From assembly GCF_048403405.1 (NCBI RefSeq), contig NZ_CP183129.1: a stretch of 64,000 nucleotides of DNA; one strand, 5' to 3'. A program made the position numbers and the translations under genes. Within the stretch, counting starts at the first letter, position 1, and the number at the start of each line of letters is the position of its first letter. Below the pieces are notes generated by a model that was given only the letters and a program-made list of their open reading frames with translations, did not search any database and had not been told where the DNA came from. The stretch comes from Escherichia coli. Lineage in GTDB: Bacteria; Pseudomonadota; Gammaproteobacteria; Enterobacterales; Enterobacteriaceae. This document shows positions 10,286 to 11,307 of the stretch, piece by piece.

Positions 10286-10315
10286 TTGAAAGGTGGTTGT
10301 AAATAATGTTACAAT
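10286..10315 (+). promoter_or_regulatory. ISEcp1-borne outward promoter driving blaCTX-M (-35 TTGAAA, 18-bp spacer, -10 TACAAT)
   Basis: Hexamers read at 10286-10291 and 10310-10315 just inside the ISEcp1 right end, about 120 bp upstream of bla ATG. Confidence 0.7.
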
Positions 10316-10431
10316 GTGTGAGAAGCAGTCTAAATTCTTCGTGAAATAGTGATTTTTGAAGCTAATAAAAAACACACGTGGAATTTAGGGAATACTGATG
10401 TAACACGGATTGACCGTATTGGGAGTTTGAG

Positions 10432-11307
10432 ATGGTGACAAAGAGAGTGCAACGGATGATGTTCGCGGCGGCGGCGTGCATTCCGCTGCTGCTGGGCAGC
10501 GCGCCGCTTTATGCGCAGACGAGTGCGGTGCAGCAAAAGCTGGCGGCGCTGGAGAAAAGCAGCGGAGGGCGGCTGGGCGTCGCGCTCATCGATACCGCAG
10601 ATAATACGCAGGTGCTTTATCGCGGTGATGAACGCTTTCCAATGTGCAGTACCAGTAAAGTTATGGCGGCCGCGGCGGTGCTTAAGCAGAGTGAAACGCA
10701 AAAGCAGCTGCTTAATCAGCCTGTCGAGATCAAGCCTGCCGATCTGGTTAACTACAATCCGATTGCCGAAAAACACGTCAACGGCACAATGACGCTGGCA
10801 GAACTGAGCGCGGCCGCGTTGCAGTACAGCGACAATACCGCCATGAACAAATTGATTGCCCAGCTCGGTGGCCCGGGAGGCGTGACGGCTTTTGCCCGCG
10901 CGATCGGCGATGAGACGTTTCGTCTGGATCGCACTGAACCTACGCTGAATACCGCCATTCCCGGCGACCCGAGAGACACCACCACGCCGCGGGCGATGGC
11001 GCAGACGTTGCGTCAGCTTACGCTGGGTCATGCGCTGGGCGAAACCCAGCGGGCGCAGTTGGTGACGTGGCTCAAAGGCAATACGACCGGCGCAGCCAGC
11101 ATTCGGGCCGGCTTACCGACGTCGTGGACTGTGGGTGATAAGACCGGCAGCGGCGACTACGGCACCACCAATGATATTGCGGTGATCTGGCCGCAGGGTC
11201 GTGCGCCGCTGGTTCTGGTGACCTATTTTACCCAGCCGCAACAGAACGCAGAGAGCCGCCGCGATGTGCTGGCTTCAGCGGCGAGAATCATCGCCGAAGG
11301 GCTGTAA
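10432..11307 (+). CDS. blaCTX-M-14: Class A extended-spectrum beta-lactamase CTX-M, CTX-M-9 group (sequence consistent with CTX-M-14), 291 aa
   Basis: [32 protein letters not shown]...; motifs STSK, SDN, E166 omega loop, KTG; D240 (GSGDYGTT) and V231 (SWTVGDK) as in CTX-M-14; 42-bp spacer from ISEcp1 IRR typical of this group. Confidence 0.9.

Follow-up and report, generated by a model that had tools for sequence, protein, structure and literature searches.

An ISEcp1-blaCTX-M-14-IS903B transposition unit within clsC of an Escherichia coli chromosome

A stretch of 64,000 nucleotides of Escherichia coli DNA (contig NZ_CP183129.1 of assembly GCF_048403405.1) was analysed and is called the window here. 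It carries a CTX-M beta-lactamase gene next to the insertion sequence ISEcp1. The locus raises the questions of which CTX-M allele is present, from which promoter it would be transcribed, and how it came to interrupt a chromosomal gene, clsC. The reading preferred here, with a probability of about 95%, is that ISEcp1, blaCTX-M-14, and part of IS903B entered the E. coli chromosome together, as a single unit, by ISEcp1 transposition, and that the promoter and the CTX-M-14 product are those described below. Nothing in the sequence speaks against this reading. Earlier work has already described the gene and its promoter, the spacer, the way in which such units are mobilised, and their integration into chromosomes. 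As an insertion site, clsC is probably a new case of a known process, and this target gene is the one point for which no earlier record appears to exist in the collections searched.

Identity of the beta-lactamase

The gene and the targeting part of its product are located as follows.

10432-11307, + strand: blaCTX-M-14 coding sequence, 876 nt, 291 aa plus stop, ATG start (exact lookup, NCBIfam, and RefSeq identity)
10432-10515, + strand: CTX-M-14 signal peptide, residues 1-28 (PDB chain alignment)

The first-pass annotation had described a 291-aa ORF with all class A catalytic motifs, had called it CTX-M-14-like on V231 and D240, and had asked for a comparison with allele databases. The motifs are indeed present, at precursor positions 73 (STSK), 133 (SDN), 169 (EPTLN), and 237 (KTG), which correspond to Ambler S70, S130, E166, and K234. 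SWTVGDK (V231) and GSGDYGTT (D240) were both found in the ORF. In alignments with PDB chains of the mature enzyme, among them 1ylt of CTX-M-14, the match begins at residue 29, so the signal-peptide cleavage was placed after residue 28.

The exact full-length protein lookup, which covers about 15 billion proteins, returned "extended-spectrum class A beta-lactamase CTX-M-14" and the UniRef entry BLC14_ECOLX. The 876-nt coding sequence is nucleotide-identical in six complete E. coli genomes, where the RefSeq annotation is WP_001617865.1, CTX-M-14. In the NCBIfam profile search, the 291-aa protein scored 620.7 bits against the blaCTX-M model NF033089 (cut-off 570). KLUC was the next-best family model with 539.4 bits, under its cut-off of 650. 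The generic class A beta-lactamase model NF033103 was the sole other model passed (347.9 vs 200), and no family-specific cut-off other than that of blaCTX-M was reached. The lookup, the RefSeq-identical coding sequence, and the NCBIfam score all agree with the allele that had been proposed. Judged by its sequence, the product is exactly CTX-M-14, a CTX-M-9 group class A extended-spectrum beta-lactamase.

A different allele of the CTX-M-9 group (CTX-M-9, -27, -24, or -65), with another substrate profile, would need only a small change, since the neighbouring alleles are only one or two residues apart. Relative to CTX-M-14, CTX-M-9 has V231A, CTX-M-27 has D240G, CTX-M-16 has both, and CTX-M-24 has S274R (PMC4086240). 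The allele can also not be inferred from context alone, because CTX-M-24 is carried in the same ISEcp1/IS903B context in some genomes, namely the E. coli chromosomes NZ_CP032145.1 and NZ_LR890326.1. However, the full-length match is to CTX-M-14, the loci with the identical coding sequence are annotated as CTX-M-14, and the published substitution table confirms V231 and D240 as the discriminating residues. Another allele is thus refuted at the sequence level by the exact match and retains next to no probability. An antisense 233-aa ORF (10330-11031) also overlaps the gene and was attributed to the high GC content of the bla coding strand.

The transposition unit and its insertion in clsC

The beta-lactamase gene is one part of a larger unit, which lies between two parts of clsC.

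8734-11772: transposition unit of 3,039 bp, made up of ISEcp1, spacer, blaCTX-M-14, and IS903B remnant, flanked by TTATA
8734-10389, + strand: complete ISEcp1 (IS1380 family), 1,656 bp (length and ends read from the sequence; identity to the p628-CTXM copy)
From 8734: ISEcp1 left inverted repeat, starting CCTAGATTCTACG, an imperfect terminal repeat
8920-10182, + strand: ISEcp1 transposase gene, 420 aa (NCBIfam NF033539)
10376-10389: end of the ISEcp1 right inverted repeat (IRR), ACGTGGAATTTAGG, an imperfect terminal repeat
11310-11772, + strand: IS903B 5' remnant, 463 bp, separated from the bla stop codon by 2 bp (NCBIfam and RefSeq)
11342-11803, + strand: truncated, chimeric IS903B transposase ORF, 153 aa
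11759-11772, + strand: surrogate right end CTGAAGGTCTTCGG, with 6/14 matches to the true IRR
8729-8733: target-site duplication TTATA, left copy
11773-11777: target-site duplication TTATA, right copy
8004-8733, - strand: 3' part of clsC (cardiolipin synthase C) with the second HKD motif, 100% identical to clsC of strain 4621
11773-12529, - strand: 5' part of clsC with the first HKD motif (coordinates mapped from the strain 4621 locus, L008)

The insertion sequence could be identified in several ways. Its transposase scored 329.6 bits against the IS1380 family transposase model NF033539 (cut-off 180), and the whole element is identical at 1656/1656 positions to the ISEcp1 of plasmid p628-CTXM. 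RefSeq labels the identical sequence in other E. coli loci as "IS1380-like element ISEcp1". The IS903B remnant scored 145.9 bits against the NCBIfam IS5 family transposase model, over profile positions 1-122 of 289. RefSeq annotates it in other loci as an incomplete IS903B transposase, and in one of the compared loci (L004) the remnant sequence extends into a full IS903B. The chimeric 153-aa ORF consists of 144 N-terminal residues of the IS903B transposase and 9 residues from clsC antisense sequence.

The unit was inserted after nucleotide 752 of clsC, a non-essential lipid gene, in codon 251 of 493. The HKD motifs of the intact protein lie at residues 150 and 389. The bla gene is antisense to clsC. 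When 8734-11777 was removed in silico, an 857-bp sequence remained that is 100% identical, in one piece, to the intact clsC of many E. coli genomes. When the two flanks are aligned to the intact site of strain 4621, they overlap there by 5 bp (L008, 15291-15295). The insertion splits ClsC between its two catalytic HKD motifs and should create a null allele.

This anatomy points to a one-ended transposition with a surrogate end. The ISEcp1 transposase would have used its true left inverted repeat together with a stretch of IS903B that resembles the right repeat only weakly, and at the AT-rich clsC target 5 bp (TTATA) would have been duplicated. Such a pairing, which mobilises the DNA between the left repeat and a weakly similar downstream sequence, has been described for ISEcp1, as have AT-rich 5-bp duplications and variable right ends (PMC9325909; PMC9330008). 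Duplications of 5 bp have been found for ISEcp1 units in another study as well (PMC9601100). According to one paper, chromosomal integration targets in E. coli are not AT-rich overall (PMC9241692), unlike the duplications in the loci compared here, all of which are AT-rich.

The order of the parts is the same as in the plasmid ISEcp1-blaCTX-M-14-IS903 platform (Lartigue et al. 2004 and Eckert et al. 2006, listed in PMC4086240), a platform that counts among the two main CTX-M contexts (PMC4086240). Both contain ISEcp1, a 42-bp leader, blaCTX-M-14, and IS903 directly after the stop codon. They differ in that the IS903B of the window is cut to 463 bp at the surrogate end and in that the unit is chromosomal. 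Chromosomal ISEcp1-blaCTX-M-14 units of E. coli have likewise been inserted directly, with a 5-bp duplication (PMC9241692; PMC9325909), but in other target genes.

The unit at other sites and the route into the chromosome

The same 3,039 bp were found with 0 mismatches near yadL in strain E41-1 (L003), with the duplication TATAA, and in a porin gene of strain KUN2017-0933 (L006), with the duplication GATTA. The presence of one unit at independent sites with different duplications indicates that it moves as a unit. In two further loci (L001 and L005), the right end lies 21 bp further on, giving 3,060 bp and the duplications TAATA or ATTAA. There are thus two recurrent right ends in E. coli chromosomes, one for 3,039 bp (ending GGTCTTCGG) and one for 3,060 bp (ending GGAAAGTCAA). 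As every insertion shows an AT-rich 5-bp duplication of its own, two or more different surrogate ends within IS903B are being reused. A unit size of 3,097 bp has also been published (PMC9241692).

The intact clsC site is present in strain 4621 (NZ_CP103479.1; blood, Houston). This strain is 100% identical to window positions 1-8733, has one mismatch over 11773-38483, and is collinear to 64000 with one further mismatch, for a total of 2 SNPs in about 61 kb. The SNP that was located is at position 34393. Since strain 4621 is otherwise collinear, the sole structural difference in 64 kb is the 3,039-bp unit and the 5-bp TTATA. Over 32000-56000, an identity of 99% or more was reached by just 6/5,441 matching records, which places the source in a narrow lineage.

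How the unit came to lie in clsC can be explained in other ways. The chromosomal location could be an artefact of the assembly, in which a plasmid-borne unit was wrongly joined to clsC. The unit is very common on plasmids; in a megablast search, window positions 8738-11773 were 100.0% identical to many plasmid records, and 80% or more of the unit is present in at least 521 plasmid records. Many E. coli chromosomes carry it too. The clsC insertion was found in 0/5,426 complete E. coli genomes, counted as one place covering at least 80% of a query that spans both junctions. The proteins specific to the junctions, which are the chimeric 153-aa ORF and two versions of a ClsC N-terminal/IS903B-remnant fragment, are absent from public protein records in the exact lookup; this absence is weak evidence, as gene callers may choose other start codons. 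Against a wrong join, the junctions are precise and fall at the true left repeat and at a right end that is used elsewhere, the 5-bp duplication is perfect, and the halves of clsC rejoin exactly. A chimeric join would yield no target-site duplication. An assembly artefact is accordingly given hardly any weight.

The unit could also have reached clsC by homologous recombination, by IS903B or IS26 activity, or by plasmid integration. Rearranged copies do exist. In strain Z0117EC0032 (NZ_CP098217.1, L002), the unit has fepA to its left and lamB to its right, with flanking 5-mers of TTATA and GATTA and thus no duplication, which suggests an inversion or a recombination between two copies of the unit in that genome. 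Yet IS26, plasmid backbone, and a second end of IS903B are all absent from the window, and the DNA that is extra relative to strain 4621 amounts to the unit and 5 bp only. IS903 makes 9-bp duplications, which differ from the 5 bp found here. IS26-bracketed chromosomal regions have been reported, and an 8-bp duplication flanks one of them, while 5-bp duplications are those published for ISEcp1 units (PMC9325909; for the 5-bp duplications also PMC9601100). Another route therefore seems highly improbable, and direct ISEcp1 transposition remains the preferred explanation.

As for the target gene, the published chromosomal hot spots are hflC, gspD, cyuP, and yicI, and clsC is not among these (PMC9241692). 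No mention of clsC or ymdC was found in the Houston cohort papers (PMC10449519 and PMC9601100).

Transcription, expected resistance, and consequences for clsC

The elements that could drive transcription and translation of bla lie in the right end of ISEcp1 and in the short spacer behind it.

10286-10322, + strand: ISEcp1 outward promoter P1 (hexamers in the sequence; start by identity with p628-CTXM)
10390-10431, + strand: 42-bp spacer between IRR and ATG (counted)

The -35 hexamer of P1 is TTGAAA (10286-10291) and the -10 hexamer is TACAAT (10310-10315), with an 18-nt spacer between them. A TG at 10307-10308 creates an extended -10, TGnTACAAT. In a promoter scan, 7 promoter-like sites were found in 3.2 kb, where 5.6 +/- 2.4 are expected, so the hexamer match alone is not above chance. 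The call is credible because the whole ISEcp1 is identical to a copy with an experimentally mapped start. In p628-CTXM, a single start of blaCTX-M-55 was mapped by primer extension to a G that lies 116 nt upstream of the ATG, in the arrangement TTGAAA-N18-TACAAT-N6-G with a 48-bp spacer (PMC4541600). A review likewise gives the ISEcp1 promoter as TTGAAA-18N-TACAAT (PMC9330008). The mapped base corresponds to G10322 of the window, 110 nt upstream of the ATG. G10322 can be taken as the likely start of bla transcription, by transfer from an identical sequence in another host and with another allele. The outward TTGAAA-N18-TACAAT that had been noticed at the right end of ISEcp1 is therefore present and identical to the mapped copy, and the distance of exactly 42 bp from IRR to ATG was reproduced by counting from 10389 to 10432.

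Sigma-70 RNA polymerase would start at G10322 from TTGAAA-N18-TGnTACAAT, and the transcript would read through the IRR and the 42-bp leader. The 5' UTR would be 110 nt long, with the Shine-Dalgarno sequence GGGAG (10421-10425) as the ribosome-binding site. Transcription is proposed to be constitutive because the gene has no regulator. The addition of ampicillin or imipenem had no effect on blaCTX-M-55 transcription (PMC4541600), which also indicates that expression from the ISEcp1 promoter is constitutive. The p628-CTXM locus shares ISEcp1, the promoter, and the start base with the window, but it has a 48-bp CTX-M-1-group leader and a 116-nt 5' UTR, whereas the window has a 42-bp CTX-M-9-group leader and 110 nt. 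The enzymes differ as well, as CTX-M-55 is active against ceftazidime and the enzyme of the window is CTX-M-14.

The spacer between ISEcp1 and blaCTX-M influences transcription (PMC9330008). A second promoter, as in the 127-bp spacer of CTX-M-3, was considered, and no further promoter-like site was found by the scan in 10390-10431. A regulatory RNA structure in the 110-nt 5' UTR was also considered and rejected, since the fold is no better than that of shuffled sequence (z = -0.13). In one compared locus (L005, NZ_CM188609.1), a G-to-A change was found at the equivalent of window position 10320, which falls between +1 and the -10 hexamer, 2 nt upstream of the mapped start. Among the six loci compared, the 3,039 bp contain no other mismatch.

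The 42-bp spacer is reported to be identical to the region upstream of the blaKLUY genes of Kluyvera georgiana, and on the strength of that review the leader is taken to be derived from Kluyvera (PMC4086240). The chromosomal KLUY-1 of this species is reported to have 100% amino-acid identity to CTX-M-14 and the same 42 bp upstream (PMC4086240). Unlike the gene in the window, it is not known to have an ISEcp1 promoter upstream. A 26-mer over the end of the spacer and the ATG gave 0 hits among species-representative genomes; the Kluyvera genome among these probably differs in its allele or its leader.

The first-pass annotation had predicted high-level constitutive expression and a preference for cefotaxime over ceftazidime. 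The constitutive part holds, given that P1 is identical to the mapped promoter. The high-level part needs to be toned down, as published single copies give moderate MICs. There is one copy of blaCTX-M-14 in the 64-kb window and it is chromosomal, which the first-pass annotation had not noted, so expression could be called high only in a relative sense. Single chromosomal copies of blaCTX-M-14 have cefotaxime MICs of 8-32 mg/L. Those close to the origin give 16-32 mg/L, and those in the second quarter of the chromosome give 8 mg/L, with ceftazidime MICs of 0.5 to <0.25 mg/L (PMC9241692). The expression of chromosomal blaCTX-M-14 drops with distance from the origin, even though the ISEcp1 promoter is identical, the MIC increases with copy number, and the unit copied itself under drug pressure (PMC9241692). 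In CTX-M enzymes, D240 goes with strong activity against cefotaxime and weak activity against ceftazidime, and D240G variants gain ceftazidime activity (PMC4086240). The published single-copy MICs thus support the predicted cefotaxime-over-ceftazidime profile.

The position of the gene bears on these values. We take clsC to lie about 40% of the way round the K-12 map from dnaA. It would then be distal to the origin, and the lower end of the published MIC range would be the better guess. Expression could even be too weak for an ESBL phenotype, if a single copy near the terminus gives too little enzyme or if the promoter is inactive. The single chromosomal copy, the fall of expression and MIC with distance from the origin, and a promoter match that is not beyond chance by hexamer statistics would fit such a failure. 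But origin-distal single copies still reach a cefotaxime MIC of 8 mg/L (PMC9241692), the sequence from promoter to ATG is identical to that of many resistant isolates, and the ISEcp1 promoter itself has been mapped by experiment. Insufficient expression is accordingly rated as improbable, though somewhat less so than the alternatives weighed above. The expected phenotype would be clinical cefotaxime resistance with a moderate MIC unless the unit is amplified, inherited stably and without a plasmid.

For surveillance, the locus is a plasmid-independent, and for that reason stably inherited, copy of a gene that ranks among the two commonest CTX-M genes in the world. Resistance to cefotaxime and ceftriaxone is predicted, and ceftazidime could possibly test susceptible. 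With ISEcp1 intact, the unit can copy itself to further sites, and the MIC can rise in this way under drug pressure, a course described for chromosomal blaCTX-M-14 (PMC9241692).

A further reading goes beyond resistance. It holds that clsC::ISEcp1-blaCTX-M-14 is an unrecorded and recent chromosomal fixation in a bloodstream-associated E. coli lineage, that it knocks out ClsC, and that transcripts reading on from bla could be antisense to ymdB and the 5' part of clsC. This is put forward tentatively, with odds somewhat short of even. If the loss of clsC or the antisense RNA affected membrane lipids or fitness, the insertion site would matter for more than resistance. The ymdB gene is intact and lies upstream of clsC in the same orientation. 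The sole terminator-like hairpin downstream of bla on the + strand is at 11592-11610 in the IS903B remnant. Of its 8 pairs 7 are G-C, and its T tail is weak, so bla transcripts may continue into clsC and ymdB as antisense RNA.
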